From Escherichia coli (GTDB lineage Bacteria; Pseudomonadota; Gammaproteobacteria; Enterobacterales; Enterobacteriaceae): a DNA stretch of 64,000 nt. The position numbers and the translations under genes are program-made. Under the pieces are notes generated by a model. The model had not been told where the DNA came from, did not search any database, and worked only from the letters and a program-made list of their open reading frames with translations. Below are positions 801 to 63,275 of this stretch, in pieces. How positions within the stretch are numbered: position 1 is the first letter of the stretch; each line of letters starts with the position of its first letter. Location of the stretch: assembly GCF_050320075.1 (NCBI RefSeq), contig NZ_CP190018.1; one strand, 5' to 3'.

Positions 801-1044
801 TTTCCGCGTCATGCTTCACGCCGCAGATGCGTTGGCTGCGCTCGTTCACCCCAGTCACATAGTTATCTATGCTCCTGGGGCTTCACTCACTTGCCGCGTG
901 ATTCGGCCTTTTGGCCTCACCCCTTTGGGGCCAGCGCAAGCGCTGTTCAAAACGCAATGCGTTTTGTCCTGCAACGCGAATCATTTAGCGGAAAAATCCT
1001 GGGGCTGCCAACTGGCGGCCCTTTTACAAAGAAGGATAACTAAA

Positions 1045-2446: not shown

Positions 2447-3223
2447 ATGTCCGAAACAAAAAACGAACTTGAAGATCTGCTGGAAAAAGCAGCAACCGAA
2501 CCGGCGCACCGCCCGGCCTTTTTCCGTACTCTACTGGAATCCACCGTCTGGGTGCCGGGTACGGCGGCGCAGGGCGAGGCTGTGGTTGAAGATAGCGCGC
2601 TTGATTTACAGCACTGGGAAAAAGAAGACGGCACCAGCGTCATTCCTTTTTTTACCTCGTTAGAAGCACTTCAACAGGCGGTTGAAGACGAACAGGCATT
2701 TGTCGTAATGCCCGTTCGCACATTGTTTGAGATGACCCTTGGCGAAACGCTCTTCCTTAATGCCAAACTGCCAACCGGTAAAGAATTTATGCCGCGTGAA
2801 ATCAGTTTGTTGATTGGTGAAGAAGGAAATCCGCTGAGCAGCCAGGAAGTACTGGAGGGCGGTGAATCGCTGATATTATCGGAAGTCGCAGAGCCGCCAG
2901 CACAAATGATTGATTCACTCACCACCTTATTTAAAACTATTAAGCCGGTGAAGCGTGCTTTTATTTGTTCAATTAAAGAGAACGAAGAGGCACAGCCTAA
3001 TTTACTTATTGGCATTGAAGCCGATGGTGATATCGAAGAAATTATTCAGGCGGCGGGAAGTGTAGCGACCGATACATTACCTGGCGATGAACCCATCGAT
3101 ATTTGTCAGGTGAAAAAAGGGGAAAAAGGAATTAGCCACTTTATTACCGAACATATTGTGCCATTCTATGAACGTCGCTGGGGTGGTTTTTTGCGTGACT
3201 TTAAACAGAACCGGATAATCTAA
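2447..3223 (+). CDS. sseB: SseB protein (enhances serine sensitivity)
   Basis: ORF 2438-3223; ATG at 2447 gives 258 aa beginning MSETKNELEDLLEKAA; synteny next to pepB and sseA. Confidence 0.85.
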   Translation: MSETKNELEDLLEKAATEPAHRPAFFRTLLESTVWVPGTAAQGEAVVEDSALDLQHWEKEDGTSVIPFFTSLEALQQAVEDEQAFVVMPVRTLFEMTLGETLFLNAKLPTGKEFMPREISLLIGEEGNPLSSQEVLEGGESLILSEVAEPPAQMIDSLTTLFKTIKPVKRAFICSIKENEEAQPNLLIGIEADGDIEEIIQAAGSVATDTLPGDEPIDICQVKKGEKGISHFITEHIVPFYERRWGGFLRDFKQNRII

Positions 3224-3299
3224 AATATGCCGCCCTAAAGGGCGGCATTCGGGCTTACTTGCTGCTCTGAAGGTTGTTAACCACCAGTAAATTGTTGCC

Positions 3300-3660
3300 G
3301 GAGAGACTCCGGTTATTATTTACCTCGGTTAACAGCGCACCAGAAACAATAAGTACGATACAAAAGCACCGTATCTTCATTGTGCGGTCCATGCGAAGAC
3401 CGCATCACGACAGCACCACTGGCGATATTGCCGCGATAGCAAGCACTGTGGGGTGTCTGCATTTACGGTCATGGAACATCCTTTCCTAAAGCCAGCGCCC
3501 GTTTGCGAGACGGCGAAAAGGGCCGTCACGAATAATACTCTCATGTTTGAATAATTACTCTGTTTATTATCTTGACATAGCCAGGCATAAAAGAGAGTAT
3601 TTCAACACTGTGGGGTGCCTGCGTTGCTCCAGCAACACAAGTCAACCAGCTGGAAAGGCC
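3300..3660. ncRNA. candidate small RNA locus in the sseB-sseA intergenic region (ryfA-like position); strand and ends uncertain
   Basis: 500-bp non-coding gap with a TTGACA box near 3572, an internal 18-bp repeat (about 3445 and 3606) and a flanking bidirectional terminator; ryfA is recalled to lie between sseA and sseB in K-12. Confidence 0.3.
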
Positions 3661-15257: not shown

Positions 15258-16376
15258 ATGCATAACCAGGCTCCAATTCAACGTAGAAAATCAACACGTA
15301 TTTACGTTGGGAATGTGCCGATTGGCGATGGTGCTCCCATCGCCGTACAGTCCATGACCAATACGCGTACGACAGACGTCGAAGCAACGGTCAATCAAAT
15401 CAAGGCGTTGGAACGTGTTGGCGCTGATATCGTCCGTGTCTCAGTACCGACGATGGACGCGGCAGAAGCGTTCAAACTCATCAAACAGCAGGTTAACGTG
15501 CCGCTGGTGGCTGACATCCACTTCGACTATCGCATTGCGCTGAAAGTAGCGGAATACGGCGTCGATTGTCTGCGTATTAACCCTGGCAATATCGGTAATG
15601 AAGAGCGTATTCGCATGGTGGTTGACTGTGCGCGCGATAAAAACATTCCGATCCGTATTGGCGTTAACGCCGGATCGCTGGAAAAAGATCTGCAAGAAAA
15701 GTATGGCGAACCGACGCCGCAGGCGTTGCTGGAATCCGCCATGCGTCATGTTGATCATCTCGATCGCTTGAACTTCGAACAGTTCAAAGTCAGCGTGAAA
15801 GCGTCAGACGTCTTCCTCGCTGTTGAGTCTTATCGTTTGCTGGCAAAACAGATCGATCAGCCGCTGCATCTGGGGATCACCGAAGCGGGTGGTGCGCGCA
15901 GCGGGGCGGTTAAATCCGCCATTGGTTTAGGTCTGCTGCTGTCTGAAGGCATTGGCGACACGCTGCGCGTATCGCTGGCGGCCGATCCGGTTGAAGAGAT
16001 CAAAGTCGGTTTCGATATTTTGAAATCGCTGCGTATCCGTTCGCGCGGGATCAACTTCATCGCCTGTCCAACCTGTTCGCGTCAGGAGTTTGATGTTATC
16101 GGTACGGTTAACGCGCTGGAGCAACGCCTGGAAGATATCATCACTCCGATGGACGTTTCGATTATCGGCTGTGTGGTGAATGGCCCAGGTGAGGCGCTGG
16201 TTTCTACACTCGGCGTCACCGGCGGTAACAAGAAAAGCGGCCTCTATGAAGATGGCGTGCGCAAAGACCGTCTGGACAACAACGATATGATCGACCAGCT
16301 GGAAGCGCGCATTCGTGCGAAAGCCAGTCAGCTGGACGAAGCGCGTCGAATTGACGTTCAGCAGGTTGAAAAATAA
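15258..16376 (+). CDS. ispG: 4-hydroxy-3-methylbut-2-enyl diphosphate synthase
   Basis: 372-aa [26 protein letters not shown]...; C-terminal Fe-S cysteines CPTCSR. Confidence 0.95.
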
Positions 16377-16486
16377 TAACGTGATGGGAAGCGCCTCGCT
16401 TCCCGTGTATGATTGAACCCGCATGGCTCCCGAAACATTGAGGGAAGCGTTGAGGGTTCATTTTTATATTCAGAAAGAGAATAAAC

Positions 16487-31455: not shown

Positions 31456-32040
31456 TTATTGTTTGTTTTTTTCGTTCTGGTTGATGACAAATTCAATGTA
31501 ACTTTCGATCTTTGCTTTCTCGGTTTCGGGTAACAATGCGTAGCGCGAGCGATCATAGTTGATGGTCGCAGGGTCGTGCGGGTGAATCAGTAATTCATAG
31601 CCGTGACGCCCGAATGCGGATGCAACATTCTCCAGGGTGGAAATGGAAACGCTGACCTCATTGTTTAACAGGCGGCTGATTGTCACCTGGGCTACGCCGG
31701 ATGCGCGGTGAAGTTTTCCCTGTGTTGAAAGGTCGCGGCTTTCGCTCATCCAGCGTTCCAGGTTGTGAGCCGCCAGCTGGCCAATGTCGCTTGGGCCGAC
31801 AGGCTGAAAACCTTCCTGAGAAAGCGAGCGATCGATATCAAGCCAGTTACGGGGTTTATTGGCGGCAGCTTCAATTTTTCGCGCAACCTGATCGCCGATA
31901 ACCTTCTTACCAAGAGCCCAGCGGTTTACCAGATTTGCCTGAGTTCCAAGTTTTTCAGCCATCCGCGTCTGAACACCATTGAATTCACGGTCGATCAAGT
32001 CGTTGAGATTTTGCCTGCGGACGTCCTGGATACTTTTCAT
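31456..32040 (-). CDS. prophage repressor candidate (CI-like), tandem HTH domains, no recognisable S24 peptidase domain
   Basis: 194-aa protein; HTH-like segments QTRMAEKLGTQANLVNRWALGKK and LHRASGVAQVTISRLLNNEVSVSISTLENVASAFG; divergent from a Cro-like gene across an operator-rich gap. Confidence 0.65.
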   Translation of the reverse strand: MKSIQDVRRQNLNDLIDREFNGVQTRMAEKLGTQANLVNRWALGKKVIGDQVARKIEAAANKPRNWLDIDRSLSQEGFQPVGPSDIGQLAAHNLERWMSESRDLSTQGKLHRASGVAQVTISRLLNNEVSVSISTLENVASAFGRHGYELLIHPHDPATINYDRSRYALLPETEKAKIESYIEFVINQNEKNKQ

Positions 32041-32194
32041 TTTCTGGAAAATCGCCTCATATATGAATCAGTAGATGATTCAATTTAAAGCAATATTACC
32101 CAACAGGTAAATGCACCTCATGGGTAACTATCCTTGATTTTTGTTACCTTATGGGTGAATATTTATTATCTGAAATAAATATCAGGCAATAGCT
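32041..32194. promoter_or_regulatory. divergent repressor/cro control region with three palindromic operator-like sites
   Basis: TTACC-caaca-GGTAA (32096-32110), gCACC-tcatg-GGTAA (32113-32127), TTACC-ttatg-GGTGA (32144-32158) between the divergent genes. Confidence 0.55.
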
Positions 32195-40847: not shown

Positions 40848-40924
40848 TGGCGTGGCATGCAGGATTCGAACCTGCGACCAACCGCTTAGAAGGCGGTTGC
40901 TCTGTCCAACTGAGCTAATGCCAC
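40848..40924 (-). tRNA. tRNA-Arg (anticodon UCU), phage-encoded
   Basis: Manual cloverleaf: acceptor GTGGCAT/ATGCCAC, D-arm GCTC/GAGC, anticodon stem ACCGC/GCGGT, loop CTTCTAA (UCU), T-arm GCAGG-TTCGAAT-CCTGC, discriminator G, CCA encoded; closely resembles host argU. Confidence 0.85.
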
Positions 40925-58054: not shown

Positions 58055-58603
58055 TTACTTTTCTTCAGGTTTGTTGTCTTCAGATTTCTTCTTGATGCTT
58101 GGTTTTTGTCTAAGAACGAAAATACCAGCCACTGCAACAACTGTACCGATCACTGTGCCAGCTAGAACTTCATGACCTGTTAAACCTAATAATGTTGCAC
58201 AAGCTACTGTAAAAATAGTTGCACTCAGGCCAAACCACTGCCCACGTTTATCTCTATTAATAGCCCCGTCAAGTGCCTTTTCCTCCATTTTCTGGCGGTG
58301 AGCAAACTCCTTCTCCGTCAGCTGGAAGATGCGTTCGGGGGCATCAGGTAAAATATCCTGATACCCGCGAAGCAGATAGGGGGGAGGAAGCGGACCCTGA
58401 AACGCATGGTGAGCGACAACTATCTCCTGAATTTCAGGGCGATCAAGAACTCTTGTGAAGGCATCTGGGTGTTGAATGATCTCGTTACTTAGCCCTTCCT
58501 CAACTTCCTCGAACTCAGTTTCTTCGTTATCACTTGGTTGCCCAATAGATTTTTGCATATTTGTCGAAGGACATTCCTTTAGCTTCTGGTTTTCCTCTTG
58601 CAT
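58055..58603 (-). CDS. membrane protein, DUF2335-like
   Basis: 182-aa protein: acidic N-terminus, PLPPPYLLRGY...ERIFQLTEKEFAHRQKMEEKALD...RGQWFG motif, two C-terminal transmembrane helices. Confidence 0.5.
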   Translation of the reverse strand: MQEENQKLKECPSTNMQKSIGQPSDNEETEFEEVEEGLSNEIIQHPDAFTRVLDRPEIQEIVVAHHAFQGPLPPPYLLRGYQDILPDAPERIFQLTEKEFAHRQKMEEKALDGAINRDKRGQWFGLSATIFTVACATLLGLTGHEVLAGTVIGTVVAVAGIFVLRQKPSIKKKSEDNKPEEK

Positions 58604-58871
58604 TTGAGTTTTTCCCTGTCACTATTGCCCATTTTCCGCCAGCAGGCGCTGCAATTTTTTTTCCGTTCTTTACTATATATTCAGCATAAACACGATTTTC
58701 TGACCGTCTGAGATCGTCTCCGACCATATTCATGTCTCTTGATATAACTTTGACGACAGAGTCTCGGTTTAAAGCCTTGGCATAGTTGGAGCCAGGAACG
58801 ATACCCAAAGGGGTGCCAGACTCTATAGCCAGCTCCTTGACATATCTTCTGCTCATATGAACCTCAACCAA
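58530..58871 (-). CDS. hypothetical protein; overlaps the start of the downstream DUF2335-like gene in another frame
   Basis: 113-aa ORF; real extent uncertain because of the 74-nt out-of-frame overlap. Confidence 0.35.
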   Translation of the reverse strand: MVEVHMSRRYVKELAIESGTPLGIVPGSNYAKALNRDSVVKVISRDMNMVGDDLRRSENRVYAEYIVKNGKKIAAPAGGKWAIVTGKNSNARGKPEAKGMSFDKYAKIYWATK

Positions 58872-58977
58872 TCGACTTTACCAATCGGGTAATTTTAAAC
58901 ATGAGTATAATGCTTTTAACTGCAACGAGTGTAAACAATTATTGATAATTGTAGGCACATCCCTGTGCCGCCGCCCG

Positions 58978-59664
58978 TCAGAAGAACCCTGCTTTGTCGT
59001 TGATGTACTCCGCGTGCGTCTGGATATCACGCAGGCATTTACTCACACCGACGATGTAGCAGAACATGGTGGTCAACTCCGCCGCCGCGCCCGATACGTC
59101 GTGCCCGTCGTCCTGTAACTGGTTCAGCAAATTCATCAGCAGTGAGTTCTCCGTCAGGCCGAGAACACCAGACGGCGAATGAATCAGGCTACGGTAGCCG
59201 GGCTTCAGTGGGGCGCTGTAGGTTTTGTTCTCTATCTTCATTGCCTGCATCACTGCTGATGCTGTGGCGTTGGCTACCTGGTCGGCAACCATCTTTATGC
59301 GTTCTTCCTGCGGGAGCGAGTTTTTAATGTAACTTCCGGTGCGGCGGATCTGAGGAAGAACCTCACCTGTAACCCATTTGCGAAAGCGGTAGGGGATAGT
59401 GCCTGGTGTTACTGCATCGCGGCAGCGGAGGATCAGTGTGTAGAGGCCTGACTCGTTGATAATATTGGTTTCGCCTTGACGGCCTAAGTTAAATTTAGCC
59501 CTTTCATCATCATCAAGAGATTTTATTGACATAGTGGGGTTTGTCAGTTGAAGAGCTTTAATAACGTCTTTGGCAACAAACCAAGGATTTCCATCAATAA
59601 CAATGGCTCGAATGGTTGCTTCTGATTCAAAATGAAAAACAGATGGGGTTACGTTAGCAGTCAT
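58978..59664 (-). CDS. antirepressor (Bro-N domain protein)
   Basis: ORF 58978-59817; start placed at the ATG giving MTANVTPSVFHFESEATIRAIVIDGNPWFVAKDVIKALQL... (Bro-N signature); AAGGTGA SD. Confidence 0.7.
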   Translation of the reverse strand: MTANVTPSVFHFESEATIRAIVIDGNPWFVAKDVIKALQLTNPTMSIKSLDDDERAKFNLGRQGETNIINESGLYTLILRCRDAVTPGTIPYRFRKWVTGEVLPQIRRTGSYIKNSLPQEERIKMVADQVANATASAVMQAMKIENKTYSAPLKPGYRSLIHSPSGVLGLTENSLLMNLLNQLQDDGHDVSGAAAELTTMFCYIVGVSKCLRDIQTHAEYINDKAGFF

Positions 59665-59817
59665 AGTGATCACCTTTGTAGTTAGGTTAATCACCACTAC
59701 CGACGCCAATCGGTTGGTGGTGAACTGTGCAGGGTTGGCGTAACCGGCTACAAAGGACCCGGCGCACCTTTCGGTGCCCCCACACAGCCCACCATAGAAT
59801 AGGTGCGCTTTACACAT

Positions 59818-59838
59818 AAAAAAAACCGCTTATGCGGC
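59818..59838 (-). terminator. intrinsic terminator after the 90-aa gene
   Basis: Hairpin ccgcataagcgg followed on the minus strand by eight U. Confidence 0.5.
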
Positions 59839-59977
59839 ATATGTGCCTCTGTAGTAACTCGGGACGCCAATCCCGGCACTGGATTTTGCCAGTGCCCGAT
59901 TACTATGGCACAAGAGGAGTGCGTTGTAAATTTACCGCAAAGGTAAATATAAGCACTCCACTTGGCAATTGCAAACC

Positions 59978-60250
59978 TTATCTGGTTTGTTTTCGTAATT
60001 GTTCGGCACAATAGTCGAGATGTGTTTGCAGATCCCGCATAGACATCTGTGAGCTGGTGACGTAGTTAATCAGTGCAGTCAGTTCGGCAAGTGGGCCATC
60101 GACATTAAATCCATCCTTATCGAGATCCCGGAGTAATTTCATCAAGTGCGATCCCTCCACCAGTGACCTGACGCCTCCCGGCGTGTGAATCCTTTCGGTA
60201 AATCCGTCTTCCAGTGGATAGTGATACTGCTGCATCTTAATCTTCTCCAT
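59978..60250 (-). CDS. small protein similar to the C-terminal region of the adjacent antirepressor
   Basis: 90-aa ORF; LMKLLRDLDKDGFNVDGPLAELTALINYV...RDLQTHLDY parallels LMNLLNQLQDDGHDVSGAAAELTTMFCYI...RDIQTHAEY in the Bro protein. Confidence 0.45.
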   Translation of the reverse strand: MEKIKMQQYHYPLEDGFTERIHTPGGVRSLVEGSHLMKLLRDLDKDGFNVDGPLAELTALINYVTSSQMSMRDLQTHLDYCAEQLRKQTR

Positions 60251-60431
60251 GCAATAACTGTATATTTATACAGTATCAAATAATTTGTTTGCTATCCAGC
60301 ACGTTTTGCAAATTACCTGAAAGGTAATATCTATTCATATTCACAGTCTTTCTATCCATATATGGTTTTTTGGGTAATAGAATAACCAGATATGCGGCGC
60401 AACGGGTGCTGCGACTATCTGGAGATTTAAC

Positions 60432-63275
60432 ATGACGGTCTCAACCGAAGTTGACCACAACGAATACACAGGTAACGGCGTTACGACATCGTTTCCGTAT
60501 ACTTTTCGAATTTTCAGAAAATCAGACCTGGTTGTTCAGGTGTCTGACCTGAACGGGAACGTAACAGAATTGGTTCTGGATACCGGTTATACGGTAACTG
60601 GGGCGGGCACTTATAGTGGCGGTTCAGTGGTTCTGCCGTCTCCGCTTGCTGCTGGCTGGCGAATTACGATAGATCGTGTGCTTGATGTAGTGCAGGAGAC
60701 AGACCTCCGCAATCAGGGAAAGTTTTTCCCCGAAGTGCATGAAGATGCCTTTGACTACCTGACGATGCTGATCCAGCAATGTTTTGGGTGGTTCAGACGT
60801 GCATTGATGAAGCCCTCTCTGCTTGCAAAATATTACGATGCAAAGCAAAACAGAATTTCTAACCTTGCAGATCCATCACTTGAGCAGGACGCTGTAAATA
60901 ATCGCTCAATGCGTAATTATGTCGATGCTGCAATCGCCGGAGTTGTTGGTGGTTTTGGTTGGTTTATTCAGTATGGTTCTGGGGCAGTATATCGCACCTT
61001 CCAGGACAAGATGCGAGATGAAATAAATGTTCATGATTATGGTGCTATAGGTGATGGAAATTATCACCCGCTTTCTGAACGTTATTCATCGTTGGCTGCT
61101 GCGCAGCAACAATATCCATTTGCTACTTCCCTTGGTCAGTCTATTGACTGGGCTGCAATACAGGCAGCGATCAATGCCTCACAAGGCAGAAAGGTAAAAT
61201 TATTAGCAAAAACATACATTTCTACTGATGGATTCACTGGCGTTGATGGTCTTTGTTTAATTGGTGAAGGTGCTACCCCTTTTTACCTTAACTTTCAGGA
61301 CATTCCATACACCAACAATGGTGGTACTGACATTCTTTTCTATGGTACAGGCCAAAAGAACAGAAGCATTTATGGTATTTCGGATATGCAGCCATCCGGT
61401 GGTGTGAGGACAGATCCTGATTTAGGCGTGACTCATGCATTAACCAATATGACGAATGGAGACGCCAGCACTTCGGCGGCTGCAACCCCTCGAGCAGTAA
61501 GCGCTGGCTTATACCTTGAGCATTGCAAAGGCTGGCAAATTGAGGGAATCCGATTTGCTCCATATTTTAACGGGGTCGAATCATATACAGACCAGACTAA
61601 CTTAGGGCTGGCTGATGAATGGGATATCGGAATTCTCATCAATAGTTCTTATGATGGTGTAATGCGCGATGTTCGCGCGGTTGGGCACTGGCGAGTTGCT
61701 GGCCTGGCTGTGTTTGCAGGCGAAAATCCTTTCAACACAGGCGCGTCATCTTCATGTGAACGAAACAGATTTTTTTCCTGTCAGTTTAATGGAAAGTCTG
61801 GCGTTCTTATTCGCGGCGGGGATGCCTACCGGTGTACAGCAGTAACAGCTGACACTGTCGAAATTCCATGGCACGATTCAAACCCGTTCCGGCATACCGG
61901 TGGGGTATTTCTTGGGGCCTTTGGTGGCGCAACCTCTGCAAGCTATACCTATACCAGCGCAACGGTTACCGGTGATAAGCTGACGCTCCACGGAGTAAGC
62001 CCTAACCCTTTATCGAATGGTATGACAACATCTTCAGGGGTGTATACCGGTAGAAGTTATGGGTTCCAGGGTACGCAATTCTTTGGTTGTTACTTTGGCG
62101 GCCTTGAGCATCAGACTAACCGAGTGGCTACAGACCCGGCGCTTACCTCACCATTCCCTACGTCGTCAAAACCTGTCGAAATTTCAGGTGTTCCGGCAGG
62201 AAATATCAGGTTCTATGGTTGTACGCACATGACCCGGGAAGACTGTGTGTGGATGATCCATAACGCCTCAAATATCTACGACTTCGGAGGCTATTTTGAG
62301 GCCAAGCGAGCGATCACTGCTACTGGCGGCGGCTCGCGCATGGTAGCCATCGGTAATTGGCCTGATTACACCCCGACTGCAGAATCACCATATCCGTTTG
62401 GTACGGTCAGTAACATAAATATGTTCGGTTCGCAGGCTCTTAATTTCGTTGATATGTACCCTGTAGTTGCCCGTTCTACAGGTGTAACGCGCTTTACCTC
62501 CGGGATGTGGGATTGTAAGACCCTCTATAGCTCCGAGGCATTTCAGGATCTTGCTGACACCAACAACTATGTAATAAAGGGTTTACGAAACGAAAGCATA
62601 AGGTTCGAGGACGGAGCCGGCGGCCATCTTATGACCATGCAGAATATTGGCAATCTCCTGCTTGGTAAGCGCGCCAGATTTAACACCTCAACAGAGGATC
62701 GTTATCAGTTCTATCGACTCGATGGAACAACCATTTTCTTATCCCTCGATGGCACGATGTCCACGCCAGTAATGACTCTGGATGGAAACTTTGTCCCTGC
62801 AGTTGCCAATACAAGGTTGGTCGGAACTGCGGCCAAGCCCTTCTCGGGAGGTAATACCCAGACAGCTTATAACATCACTTCTGACCGGAACTACAAAACT
62901 GACTTTGGTGAAATTCCTGACGCCGTTCTGGATGCATGGGAATTGGTGCAGTATTCACAATATAAACTCAGGGATGCAGTTGCGTTGAAGGGGGAAGGCG
63001 CCAGATTACATGTCGGTGTTGTTGCACAGCAGGTGAAAGAGGCATTTGAATCAGTAGGGGTCGATCCTTTTGCATATGGCGTACTGTGCTACGACGAATG
63101 GTCTGGTCAGGAAGAAGTTATTGAGGACGGTGTCATTACGCAGCAAAAAGTGGAAGCAGGGAAGCGTTACAGTGTGCGCTACGAAGAGGCATATGCAATA
63201 GAGTCCGCCTTGCTTCGGAGAACTCATACCAGATTGGAGCAGCGCTTATCTTCTCTTGAAGAAAAATCAAAATAG
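60432..63275 (+). CDS. tailspike/tail fibre protein with C-terminal S74 intramolecular chaperone domain
   Basis: 947-aa ORF; conserved podovirus N-terminal region; C-terminal ...NITSDRNYKTDF... autoproteolysis motif (Ser/Lys dyad) typical of Peptidase_S74 chaperone domains. Confidence 0.8.
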   Translation: MTVSTEVDHNEYTGNGVTTSFPYTFRIFRKSDLVVQVSDLNGNVTELVLDTGYTVTGAGTYSGGSVVLPSPLAAGWRITIDRVLDVVQETDLRNQGKFFPEVHEDAFDYLTMLIQQCFGWFRRALMKPSLLAKYYDAKQNRISNLADPSLEQDAVNNRSMRNYVDAAIAGVVGGFGWFIQYGSGAVYRTFQDKMRDEINVHDYGAIGDGNYHPLSERYSSLAAAQQQYPFATSLGQSIDWAAIQAAINASQGRKVKLLAKTYISTDGFTGVDGLCLIGEGATPFYLNFQDIPYTNNGGTDILFYGTGQKNRSIYGISDMQPSGGVRTDPDLGVTHALTNMTNGDASTSAAATPRAVSAGLYLEHCKGWQIEGIRFAPYFNGVESYTDQTNLGLADEWDIGILINSSYDGVMRDVRAVGHWRVAGLAVFAGENPFNTGASSSCERNRFFSCQFNGKSGVLIRGGDAYRCTAVTADTVEIPWHDSNPFRHTGGVFLGAFGGATSASYTYTSATVTGDKLTLHGVSPNPLSNGMTTSSGVYTGRSYGFQGTQFFGCYFGGLEHQTNRVATDPALTSPFPTSSKPVEISGVPAGNIRFYGCTHMTREDCVWMIHNASNIYDFGGYFEAKRAITATGGGSRMVAIGNWPDYTPTAESPYPFGTVSNINMFGSQALNFVDMYPVVARSTGVTRFTSGMWDCKTLYSSEAFQDLADTNNYVIKGLRNESIRFEDGAGGHLMTMQNIGNLLLGKRARFNTSTEDRYQFYRLDGTTIFLSLDGTMSTPVMTLDGNFVPAVANTRLVGTAAKPFSGGNTQTAYNITSDRNYKTDFGEIPDAVLDAWELVQYSQYKLRDAVALKGEGARLHVGVVAQQVKEAFESVGVDPFAYGVLCYDEWSGQEEVIEDGVITQQKVEAGKRYSVRYEEAYAIESALLRRTHTRLEQRLSSLEEKSK

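Follow-up and report, generated by a model that had tools for sequence, protein, structure and literature searches.

Two antirepressor genes and an IsrK-C4-BroN cassette in the likely control region of a phiV10/epsilon15-like prophage of Escherichia coli

Two antirepressor genes in a Uetakevirus prophage

The window, that is the whole stretch of 64,000 nucleotides analysed here, belongs to an E. coli chromosome and carries a phiV10/epsilon15-like (Uetakevirus) prophage integrated at guaA. We looked at the part of this prophage in which two antirepressor genes, two small RNA elements and several candidate regulatory sites lie close together (Table 1). In phage SPC32H there is no insert from ant to the virion genes, whereas the window has a 1.9-kb insert with IsrK, C4, the Bro-N gene and two further ORFs. 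The Bro-N gene is an insert, and both SPC32H and epsilon15 are without the cassette. In RefSeq, the small antirepressor is named "hypothetical protein", and IsrK and C4 are both without annotation.

Table 1. Position, strand and supporting evidence of the features discussed in the text.
Feature	Position in window	Strand	Evidence
Small antirepressor gene ant, 85 aa (most likely start)	59978..60235	-	PDB 5D50_E, PHROG 450, RefSeq
Predicted LexA (SOS) box AACTGTATATTTATACAGTA directly upstream of ant	60256..60275	.	consensus match and conservation
Candidate Rep operator, TTACC-N5-GGTAA palindrome between the divergent ant and tailspike genes	60313..60327	.	motif count and conservation
TTACC-N5-GGTAA palindrome (TTACC-gcaaa-GGTAA), candidate Rep operator at the isrK promoter	59932..59946	.	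motif count and conservation
Predicted sigma-70 promoter of the isrK-C4-ant unit	59902..59930	-	promoter scan
IsrK sRNA (= c4-a1b1; a1/b1 leader of P1-type immI)	59819..59895	-	Rfam RF01394
C4 antisense RNA	59713..59799	-	Rfam RF01695
C4 target sites a2 and b2, leader of the Bro-N mRNA	59673..59709	-	reverse complementarity to a'/b'
Second antirepressor, 228 aa, Bro-N and Ant-like C-terminal domain	58978..59664	-	Pfam, PHROG, PDB 5D50_E
Prophage repressor Rep, presumed target of both antirepressors	31456..32040	-	PDB 5D50_A

The small ORF matches the 'Anti-repressor protein' chain of PDB 5D50_E (phmmer, E 1.6e-46; ORF residues 7-89 to chain residues 3-85), is 87% identical to SPC32H Ant (tblastn) and matches PHROG 450, while a Pfam search gave only a chance-level match to DUF724. 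The SPC32H orthologue is annotated as ant and adjoins the tailspike gene in both phages, and the small Ant was found in all Uetakevirus examined. Judged by homology, the small protein is thus a full-length, lineage-typical antirepressor Ant, orthologous to that of SPC32H, which was crystallised together with its repressor (PDB 5D50) and is described as a tetramer binding two Rep dimers (PMC9638917). The frame is open to an ATG at 60250 and would give the 90-aa protein (59978-60250) of the initial annotation; this frame is real, but the start is most likely the second ATG, at 60235, in agreement with the RefSeq call and with the SPC32H and phiV10 orthologues. This ATG has a GGAG 9 nt upstream.

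The predicted LexA box agrees with the consensus TACTG(TA)5CAGTA at 18 of 20 positions, and its CTGT-N8-ACAG core (60258-60273) is one of three such cores in the window. In phiV10, Tyrion and SPC32H neither the CTGT nor the ACAG core varies; in the Klebsiella phage one base is changed (ATGT). Kim and Ryu reportedly placed ant under LexA control in SPC32H in 2013.

We also considered the TTACC-N5-GGTAA palindrome, of which the initial annotation had correctly seen the copy at 59932-59946. The window contains 10 exact copies and 5 with one mismatch against about 1 expected, and none of 100 shuffles reached 15. The copy between ant and the tailspike gene has invariant half-sites and a varying spacer in five phages including SPC32H. 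The other copy at the locus ends 1 nt upstream of the -35 element of the isrK promoter and is kept in phiV10, Tyrion and the Klebsiella phage ST512, where the spacer again varies; it is absent from the IsrK-C4 modules outside Uetakevirus. Two palindromes, at 32096 and 32144, are within the divergent promoter region of rep, whose product matches the 'Repressor' chain of PDB 5D50_A (phmmer, E 4e-42 over 190 aa). The palindrome is probably the operator of Rep, a candidate site that this repressor would probably bind.

The second antirepressor combines a Bro-N domain (PF02498, E 1.3e-19, aa 18-104, about 59353-59613) with an Ant-like C-terminal domain (aa 143-224, about 58993-59238). PHROG 130/245 ('anti-repressor Ant') match the protein and PHROG 450 its C-terminal domain, and residues 147-223 match residues 3-79 of PDB 5D50_E (E 1.9e-13). 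The initial annotation had aligned the small protein by eye to the C-terminal 60 residues of the Bro-N protein; BLASTP bears this out over a longer stretch, with a significant alignment of 41% identity over 82 aa (E 2e-17). By this alignment, the small Ant and the Bro-N protein are true paralogues, the latter having acquired a whole Ant-like domain. Every phage record with the fusion also has the small Ant, and in the phage collection all matches to the Ant-like domain were Uetakevirus-like, with Escherichia, Salmonella, Klebsiella and Enterobacter as sources. RefSeq and phage records start the Bro-N gene at the ATG corresponding to 59664, which has a good Shine-Dalgarno sequence. An N-terminal extension to the ATG at 59817 (open frame, 279 aa) was rejected, as it is without Shine-Dalgarno sequence and would cross the C4 RNA.

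IsrK, C4 and their complementary sites

For the gap between the two antirepressor genes, the promoter scan gave a minus-strand promoter with the elements TTTACA and CATAGT, a 17-nt spacer and a TG extension. Its position is the same in 17 of 17 modules compared and is that of the promoter annotated as P1c4/P51b in P1. This single promoter upstream of a1 would co-transcribe a1b1, c4 and ant as one predicted transcript.

IsrK matches its Rfam model with 74.2 bits (gathering score 50; 77/77 model positions; E near 1e-14) and shows the family architecture, in which two hairpins at the 5' end are followed by an unpaired stretch and a Rho-independent terminator. The terminator consists of a stem at 59825-59838 followed by eight U and was independently predicted by a terminator search. 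The Rfam motif c4-a1b1 (RF03163) scores 44.3 bits at 59856-59908, slightly below its gathering score of 46.7; IsrK and this motif are the same element. C4 matches with 79.5 bits (gathering score 45; 87/87 positions; E near 1e-14) and folds into a long closing stem (17 bp) around two hairpins with a 3' single strand, an architecture that the minimum-energy fold also gives. The consensus structure of 16 C4 sequences has 27 pairs, of which 14 show compensatory changes. The closing stem is tRNA-like and followed by an ACCA-type sequence; a P1-type C4 would be cut from its precursor by RNase P.

The hairpins listed by the initial annotation all exist and can be assigned to these elements: 59762-59777 is C4 hairpin 1, 59826-59837 the IsrK terminator and 59872-59897 the IsrK 5' hairpin. 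IsrK hairpin 2, C4 hairpin 2 and the C4 closing stem had been missed. The 231-nt leader as a whole folds with -99.9 kcal/mol, against -75.7 +/- 5.2 kcal/mol for shuffled sequences (z = -4.65; 0 of 200 shuffles as stable). We also sought a pairing partner for the conserved loop of IsrK hairpin 1, GCAAAAUC, and found none.

C4 carries two short antisense segments, b' (CCUUUGUAG, 59748-59756) in the loop of hairpin 2 and a' (ACGCCAA, 59735-59741) in the single strand 3' of this hairpin. Upstream, the loop of IsrK hairpin 2 contains a1 (UUGGCGU, 59864-59870), and b1 (CUACAGAGG, 59846-59854) matches b' with one G-U pair. Downstream, a2 (UUGGCGU, 59703-59709) is the exact reverse complement of a' over 7 nt and b2 (CUACAAAGG, 59673-59681) that of b' over 9 nt. 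The fit of all four target sites to C4 is perfect or includes one G-U pair, and b2 overlaps the Shine-Dalgarno sequence AAGGUGA of the Bro-N gene, 8 nt 5' of its AUG.

These complementarities hold across the 17 modules, P1 included. In all of them a' is exactly reverse-complementary to both a1 and a2, and in 17 of 17 b' shows complementarity of 6-12 nt to b1 and b2, always at fixed positions. The modules contain 5 variants of a' and 14 of b', which co-vary with a1/b1 and a2/b2. Applied to P1, this procedure finds the a1/b1/a2/b2 sites that its GenBank record gives. A cross-matrix of cognate and non-cognate a'/b' pairs with G-U allowed was noisy, many b' loops being alike purine-complement sequences, and the position-fixed table was used instead. 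Between b2 and the antirepressor gene, no coupling ORF of the icd or orf45 type was found; the Bro-N start codon directly follows b2, and the sole frame upstream has 15 codons and stops within C4. Such an ORF is also missing in APSE, Tyrion and the Klebsiella phage and is not universal among Rfam C4 loci. The ant ribosome-binding site itself must therefore be the point of action of the predicted mechanism.

Proposed control of the two antirepressors and known counterparts

Taken together, we consider it likely that the locus is a control region of this phiV10/epsilon15-like prophage with two antirepressors, an SOS-type small Ant and an inserted IsrK-C4-BroN cassette of the P1 immI type. Both switches, the small antirepressor and the gating of a second antirepressor by IsrK and C4, are already-known systems, of which this is an ordinary instance; no new principle follows from it.

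For the first switch, LexA would occupy the box next to the ant start and Ant would be made upon DNA damage. In SPC32H, the Ant tetramer pulls the non-cleavable repressor Rep off its operators. For the second switch, one promoter would give mostly IsrK, 77 nt long and stopping at its own terminator, and read-through would give C4 and then the Bro-N antirepressor mRNA. The a' and b' segments of C4 would base-pair with the a2 and b2 sites of the mRNA leader and, as b2 covers the Shine-Dalgarno sequence, C4 is predicted to block translation of the Bro-N antirepressor. The a1 and b1 sites of IsrK would act as decoys competing for C4, so that an increase of IsrK relative to C4 would release translation. 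The direction of this regulation is taken by analogy from the genetics of P1 and Gifsy-1. As its Bro-N domain is fused to a complete Ant-like domain, the second antirepressor is expected to act on the Rep-type repressors of the lineage, and Rep is its presumed target. The palindrome beside the isrK promoter may moreover tie the cassette to the prophage's own Rep, as Op51 does in P1. Small RNAs encoded in the 313-bp gap would thus control the Bro-N antirepressor; the RNAs, their ends and C4 processing are predictions.

A close counterpart of the cassette is immI of P1 and P7, which has the same order of parts on one strand, a homologous promoter (P51b) and the same C4 fold, with a' and b' pairing with sites on both sides of C4 and an antirepressor as the regulated gene. 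The spacing is also alike, a2 and b2 being 22 nt apart in P1 and 21 nt in the window, with b2 8-10 nt 5' of the start codon, and where P1 has the repressor operator Op51 in its promoter region the window has the candidate Rep palindrome. P1, however, has the coupling ORF icd between b2 and ant. The window has none, and b2 therefore lies directly on the antirepressor's own Shine-Dalgarno sequence. Unlike in P1/P7, the leader has a strong terminator, and a discrete IsrK RNA is thus expected. Moreover, the antirepressor is a Bro-N and Ant-like fusion unlike P1 Ant1/2, and the cassette sits in a podovirus with a further, SOS-driven antirepressor.

The small Ant has its counterpart in the Rep-Ant switch of SPC32H (PDB 5D50, 5D4Z), which shares Ant (87% identity), a Rep homologue, dispersed TTACC-N5-GGTAA sites and a LexA box and palindrome in the same intergenic region beside the tailspike gene; by alignment, Rep is far less similar between the two phages than Ant is. 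The APSE phages of Hamiltonella (PMC7313666) contain the identical triplet of isrK, C4 and Bro-N gene, with a'/b' marked in the record and b2 on the Bro-N Shine-Dalgarno sequence, but their a' and b' sequences differ. As the Ant-like domain matched only Uetakevirus-like records, the APSE protein is evidently without it. The cassette appears to move between phage types, and its Uetakevirus version carries the lineage's repressor-binding domain together with a copy of the candidate operator. P4 CI RNA with seqA and seqC is comparable in that a processed RNA pairs with target copies up- and downstream in its own transcript, and IsrK has been named a structural homologue of seqA (PMC4825925). In P4, in contrast, the result is premature transcription termination and not a block of the ribosome-binding site, and the window is without P4-type genes.

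Further resemblance is found in the isrK-orf45-anrP-isrJ region of Salmonella Gifsy-1, which has an IsrK of the same family (79 bits, 74 in the window), a C4 element 25 nt after IsrK with an identical a' (ACGCCAA), and an antirepressor downstream. It differs by orf45, IsrJ downstream, the antiterminator Q as neighbour and another b' specificity, and the locus has no orf45 equivalent, no IsrJ downstream and no Q gene as neighbour. In Gifsy-1, IsrK supplied in trans increased anrP translation 139-fold (Hershko-Shalev et al. 2016, PMC4825925). Hfq binding and trans-activation of a downstream antirepressor are properties of IsrK known only from this prophage (PMC4825925). The published compensatory pairs G28-C162 and G31-C159 map exactly to a1 and a' of the Gifsy-1 C4 element; these mutations coincide with the a1:a' pairing of a C4 RNA, and the locus links the literatures on P1 c4, Salmonella IsrK and SPC32H Rep-Ant.

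Other readings of the locus

A stronger version of our reading would join the two antirepressors into one feed-forward commitment circuit, or give them an anti-immunity function against related prophages; we regard this as rather unlikely. The terminator search found no terminator from the ant stop codon to IsrK, so that the IsrK terminator probably also ends ant transcripts. SOS-induced ant transcripts would then carry the a1/b1 decoy at their 3' end, and DNA damage would raise the decoy relative to C4 and allow translation of the Bro-N::Ant-like protein. The candidate Rep operator lies at about -44 of the isrK promoter, and its occupancy would shift once Ant removes Rep. If true, the circuit would have as its effector a duplicate of the Ant domain that a mobile IsrK-C4-BroN cassette has taken up.

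It is improbable, in our view, that the window works as proposed for Gifsy-1, where IsrK remodels the read-through mRNA, orf45 is translated and coupling to the antirepressor follows, C4 being no regulator itself. Gifsy-1 genetics argue for it (PMC4825925), orf45 is reported to be needed there (PMC4825925), and the conserved AUG in the 5' stem of C4 is at the orf45 start position. The minimum-energy fold of the full read-through RNA moreover pairs a1b1 in cis with a'b', as in 'structure A' of the Gifsy-1 authors, a form described as translationally silent (PMC4825925), which suggests that a simple picture of C4 blocking and IsrK relieving may be incomplete. However, the frame from the conserved AUG varies from 8 to more than 64 codons across modules and ends after 15 codons, within the b' loop, in the window, Tyrion, the Klebsiella phage and APSE-7 (after 14 in P1). 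Ending there, it cannot be coupled to ant in the window. Conservation is seen instead in the RNA structure and in the match of b' to a site on the Shine-Dalgarno sequence of the real gene.

To a similar degree we doubt that the cassette is an inactive relic, a recombination moron whose RNAs and protein regulate nothing in this prophage. Its absence from SPC32H and epsilon15 would fit, as would the phiV10 copy of the Bro-N gene, which is frameshifted, so that the cassette is dispensable for phage growth, and the N-terminal Bro-N part, which is mosaic among close relatives. Against it, the window ORF, the promoter and the terminator are intact, the four target sites fit C4 with at most one G-U pair each, and at least 80% of the region is present in 244 of 5426 complete E. 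coli genomes. Moreover, the homologue in ZX5 (ORF4), which has 83% overall identity and almost no differences in its last 150 aa, is active on expression: its over-expression decreased lysogeny and lowered the prophage titre 1000-fold.

Very improbable is the reading of the initial annotation, in which the small protein is a truncated Bro-N copy acting as dominant-negative or partner and a sar-like antisense RNA controls ant. The two proteins are homologous, and with a tetrameric Ant mixed Ant/Ant-like oligomers are conceivable. The small protein is nevertheless full length against the crystallised SPC32H Ant, is the conserved one of the pair, present in SPC32H and epsilon15 although these are without the Bro-N gene, and has a LexA box of its own. 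As for the RNA, control by a small RNA is the part of that proposal which stood, and the sar-like antisense RNA was rejected: from 58800 to 60500 all six promoter-like sites are on the minus strand and none on the plus strand, the Rfam scan gave no plus-strand match at the locus, and both RNAs lie on the ant strand in a c4 system. In P22 immI (mnt, arc, ant, sar), which resembles the locus by its location between injection-protein genes and tailspike and by an antirepressor silenced partly by a small RNA, sar is a cis-antisense RNA whose transcription runs on the opposite strand inside the ant leader, and Arc and Mnt are protein repressors. The window RNAs, unlike sar, are c4-family RNAs that share the strand of ant and would act by short a'/b' pairing with a2/b2 at the ribosome-binding site.

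Least credible of all, the hairpins could be only terminators or attenuators of the small ant, with no trans-acting RNA, a reading to which the probable end of ant transcripts at the IsrK terminator lends some weight, whereas only one of five helices is a terminator, the others match the two Rfam families at E near 1e-14, and they co-vary with the target sites.

A small antirepressor and its Bro-N paralogue

The region consists of an SPC32H-type Ant together with a P1-type IsrK/C4 cassette, and every element flagged in the initial annotation is explained by known families. It belongs to a prophage that occupies the window from about 26.2 kb onward, with an integration site adjoining guaA, and is 92–97% identical to phiV10, vB_EcoP_ZX5, TL-2011b and other Uetakevirus. 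The window agrees at 100% with chromosomal sequence of E. coli strain YZLc1-3. On the minus strand, the small ORF is followed by a 313-bp gap, the Bro-N gene and two more small genes.

Features of the prophage region, in window coordinates
Feature	Position	Strand	Remarks
Small Ant gene	59978-60235	-	
Bro-N gene	58978-59664	-	228 aa
Rep gene	31456-32040	-	prophage repressor
isrK	59895→59819	-	74.2 bits, gathering score 50 (Rfam, whole-window scan)
C4 antisense RNA	59799→59713	-	79.5 bits, gathering score 45 (Rfam, whole-window scan)
c4-a1b1 ("a1, b1 targets of C4 antisense RNA")	59908→59856	-	44.3 bits, below gathering score 46.7
LexA box, near-consensus	60256-60275, core 60258-60273		directly upstream of small Ant gene; predicted from sequence
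Tailspike gene	from 60432	+	divergent from small ORF
108-aa ORF	within 58055-58892	-	PHROG 10654, function unknown
182-aa DUF2335 membrane protein	within 58055-58892	-	PHROG 3996, 'moron'
TTACC-N5-GGTAA, exact copies (26240-60327)	31322, 31384, 32096, 34427, 34489, 38082, 41248, 58878, 59932, 60313		

The small protein had been taken for a truncated paralogue of the Bro-N antirepressor. The paralogy is significant (pairwise alignment, 41% identity over 82 residues, E 2e-17), and the idea of a fragment was abandoned, as the small protein aligns end to end with SPC32H Ant (PDB 5D50 chain E, E 1.6e-46). Its start is likely the ATG at 60235 (85 aa), which is preceded by GGAG and on which the RefSeq and phiV10 gene calls concur. 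Using tblastn, we found small Ant in 35 phage records, all Uetakevirus-like, among them Salmonella phages including SPC32H and epsilon15 with 83–87% identity. The repressor partner is also present in the window, as Rep matches PDB 5D50 chain A (E 4e-42). In SPC32H, DNA damage reportedly does not cleave Rep, Ant is said to inactivate it, and LexA is reported to repress the ant promoter. The LexA box is kept in phiV10, Tyrion and SPC32H and differs by one base in the Klebsiella phage, while the flanking sequence is variable. The Ant tetramer binds two Rep dimers and disrupts the DNA-binding Rep tetramer (PMC9638917).

The Bro-N protein carries a Bro-N domain at residues 18–104 (Pfam), and its residues 147–223 align with residues 3–79 of the crystallised Ant (E 1.9e-13); this C-terminal domain is presumably the repressor-binding part. 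In the phage collection, the Ant-like domain was found only in Uetakevirus-like records and its fusion to Bro-N only in those also carrying small Ant. SPC32H and epsilon15 lack the whole insert, and in SPC32H the virion genes come directly after ant. The cassette appears to have been fitted with a copy of the lineage's own antirepressor, and the recognition that its putative effector bears a duplicated Ant domain is mildly new. The ZX5 homologue shares 83% identity with the Bro-N protein as a whole and is almost the same in the final 150 residues; when over-expressed, it brought the prophage titre down from 1e9 to 1e6.

In phiV10, the Bro-N gene (L001 3012-3691) has a frameshift that falls within its Ant-like C-terminal domain, the locus being annotated as a 194-aa protein and a 29-aa ORF, so that this type phage is probably without a working second antirepressor. 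Downstream of the Bro-N gene, the 108-aa ORF and the DUF2335 gene overlap and have promoter-like sites of their own, as well as a copy of the palindrome (58878-58892); both genes are absent from SPC32H.

An IsrK-C4 module in the gap

The three hairpins initially noticed in the gap are real; one is the 5' hairpin of IsrK, another its terminator and the third hairpin 1 of C4. The 231 nt from 59895 to 59665 fold 4.65 SD better than dinucleotide shuffles. The Rfam scan of the whole window placed isrK and C4 back to back, both on the minus strand, while an added sensitive scan gave c4-a1b1, overlapping IsrK. A sigma-70 promoter (TTTACA, 17-nt spacer, CATAGT) ends 7 nt upstream of the IsrK 5' end, and the 3' end is a stem with an eight-U run, a predicted terminator. 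In IsrK, a1 (UUGGCGU) lies in the hairpin-2 loop and b1 (CUACAGAGG) 9 nt downstream of it; in C4, b' (CCUUUGUAG) is found within the hairpin-2 loop and a' (ACGCCAA) in the unpaired stretch that follows this hairpin on its 3' side. Past C4 by 4 nt starts a2 (UUGGCGU), and 21 nt beyond a2 comes b2 (CUACAAAGG), overlapping the Shine-Dalgarno AAGGUGA, 8 nt upstream of the Bro-N AUG.

The order of parts is the same as in the P1 GenBank annotation, namely promoter P1c4 (P51b), a1, b1, c4 RNA, a2, b2, icd and ant. We compared 17 modules, the window and 16 from phage records, namely APSE-7, a Klebsiella phage, Moraxella Mcat4, a Yersinia phage, several Stx phages, Salmonella SW-37 and sal3, an Actinobacillus phage, Tyrion and P1, whose annotated sites were recovered by the same procedure, which validates it. 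Results showed that a' occurs in five sequence variants and that in 17/17 modules its reverse complement is found, without mismatch, at a1 as well as at a2; b', with 14 loop variants, is complementary to b1 and b2 over 6–12 nt at the same relative positions in all 17. Moreover, compensatory changes were found at 14 of the 27 pairs of the C4 fold. Complementarity and covariation of the sites and the fold argue that the predicted cassette is a bona fide P1-type immI RNA module. The suggestion of a small RNA controlling the Bro-N gene therefore holds in so far as an RNA module is predicted in the gap, but not as a sar-type antisense system; a promoter scan of 58800-60500 found no plus-strand promoter.

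The Rfam families isrK (RF01394, no clan) and c4-a1b1 (RF03163, in clan CL00128 with C4) match the same element in most modules (window 59819-59908; loci L002-L016, L019 and L024 of the phage records), the c4-a1b1 match beginning 13 nt upstream of isrK, inside the promoter −10 sequence; the isrK model gives 35 bits on the P1 a1/b1 leader. By these matches, the two families appear to describe one RNA. Most modules share the IsrK hairpin-1 loop GCAAAAUC (59876-59895), over a range that extends from E. coli to Moraxella and APSE, and no complementary partner for it was found in C4 or the leader. In two phage records, long CDSs annotated as 'peptidase' and 'putative antirepressor' (L010 1625-2770; L011 1631-2773) span the IsrK and C4 genes and are probably over-extended ORF calls. 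In a Stx2a phage, a match to sRNA-Xcc1 (75.7 bits, L012 2643-2726) follows the IsrK-C4 module at a distance of about 550 nt, recalling whitefly APSE phages, for which sRNA-Xcc1 has been reported close to genes of the antirepressor type.

Direction of control

It is established for P1 and P7 that c4 RNA pairs with a2/b2 and so blocks the ribosome-binding site on which expression of ant depends (Citron & Schuster 1990). In Gifsy-1, IsrK in trans raises anrP translation 139-fold, compensatory mutant pairs connect IsrK and orf45 (G28-C162, G31-C159), and the authors noted a likeness to P4 seqA/CI and a processed RNA, STnc1160, downstream of IsrK (PMC4825925). We found a C4 element (69 bits) 25 nt downstream of IsrK at that locus. 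In both mutant pairs, one position lies precisely within a1 (+26 to +32) and the other within a' (+158 to +164); therefore, the helix proven by the Gifsy-1 experiments is the a1:a' pairing. In Gifsy-1 (L024 384-627), the conserved AUG of the C4 5' stem is the start of 'orf45', whose end is an AUGA on the anrP start, and the anrP Shine-Dalgarno is covered by b2. This suggests a simpler c4-type reading of the isrK/orf45 locus. IsrK probably acts as a decoy competing with a2/b2 for C4.

The decoy reading carries two caveats. When the whole read-through RNA is folded to minimum energy, a1b1 is paired with a'b' in cis, a form that the Gifsy-1 authors found silent (PMC4825925). Moreover, the 'orf45' frame is variable: from the conserved AUG it runs for 15 codons in the window and for 8 to more than 64 in other modules. 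With only 15 codons here, control would have to act directly at the Bro-N ribosome-binding site. A mildly new possibility is that SOS-driven ant transcripts may end in an IsrK decoy.

A dispersed palindrome as candidate Rep operator

The palindrome noted at 59932-59946 is confirmed, and its motif is strongly enriched, as the window holds 10 exact and 5 one-mismatch copies of TTACC-N5-GGTAA versus about 1 expected, all but one within the prophage. Those at 32096 and 32144 lie in the rep/cro divergent region and others ahead of several operons, while three (58878, 59932, 60313) are in or adjoin the flagged region. SPC32H has 18 copies versus 0.66 expected, in matching places, with 3 between rep and its divergent neighbour. 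In the window, 1 nt separates the end of the 59932 copy from the −35 hexamer of the isrK promoter, which lies downstream of it. This copy is retained by phiV10, Tyrion and the Klebsiella phage, although its spacer varies; among the modules compared, those of other phage types have no palindrome at the isrK promoter. This candidate is most likely a Rep operator with a role like that of P1 Op51; its centre near −44 would allow either repression or activation. The recognition that the cassette may have gained its host phage's operator is also mildly new.

In both the window prophage and SPC32H (L022), the palindrome is dispersed at heads of transcription units, an arrangement that resembles the regulon of a repressor with many operators, as P1 C1 has. 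Pairs 62 bp apart are common (window 31322/31384 and 34427/34489; SPC32H 33604/33666 and 35972/36034), and such pairs fit a tetrameric Rep needing two sites.

The prophage also possesses a tRNA-Arg gene (40851-40924, minus strand) between the terminase and portal genes, at the same place as in SPC32H. In the host part of the window (902-974, 3222-3526 and 16376-16467), there are Rfam matches to ryfA (320 bits), sroE (117 bits) and, weakly, AaHKsRNA22 (47 bits; gathering score 39.8).
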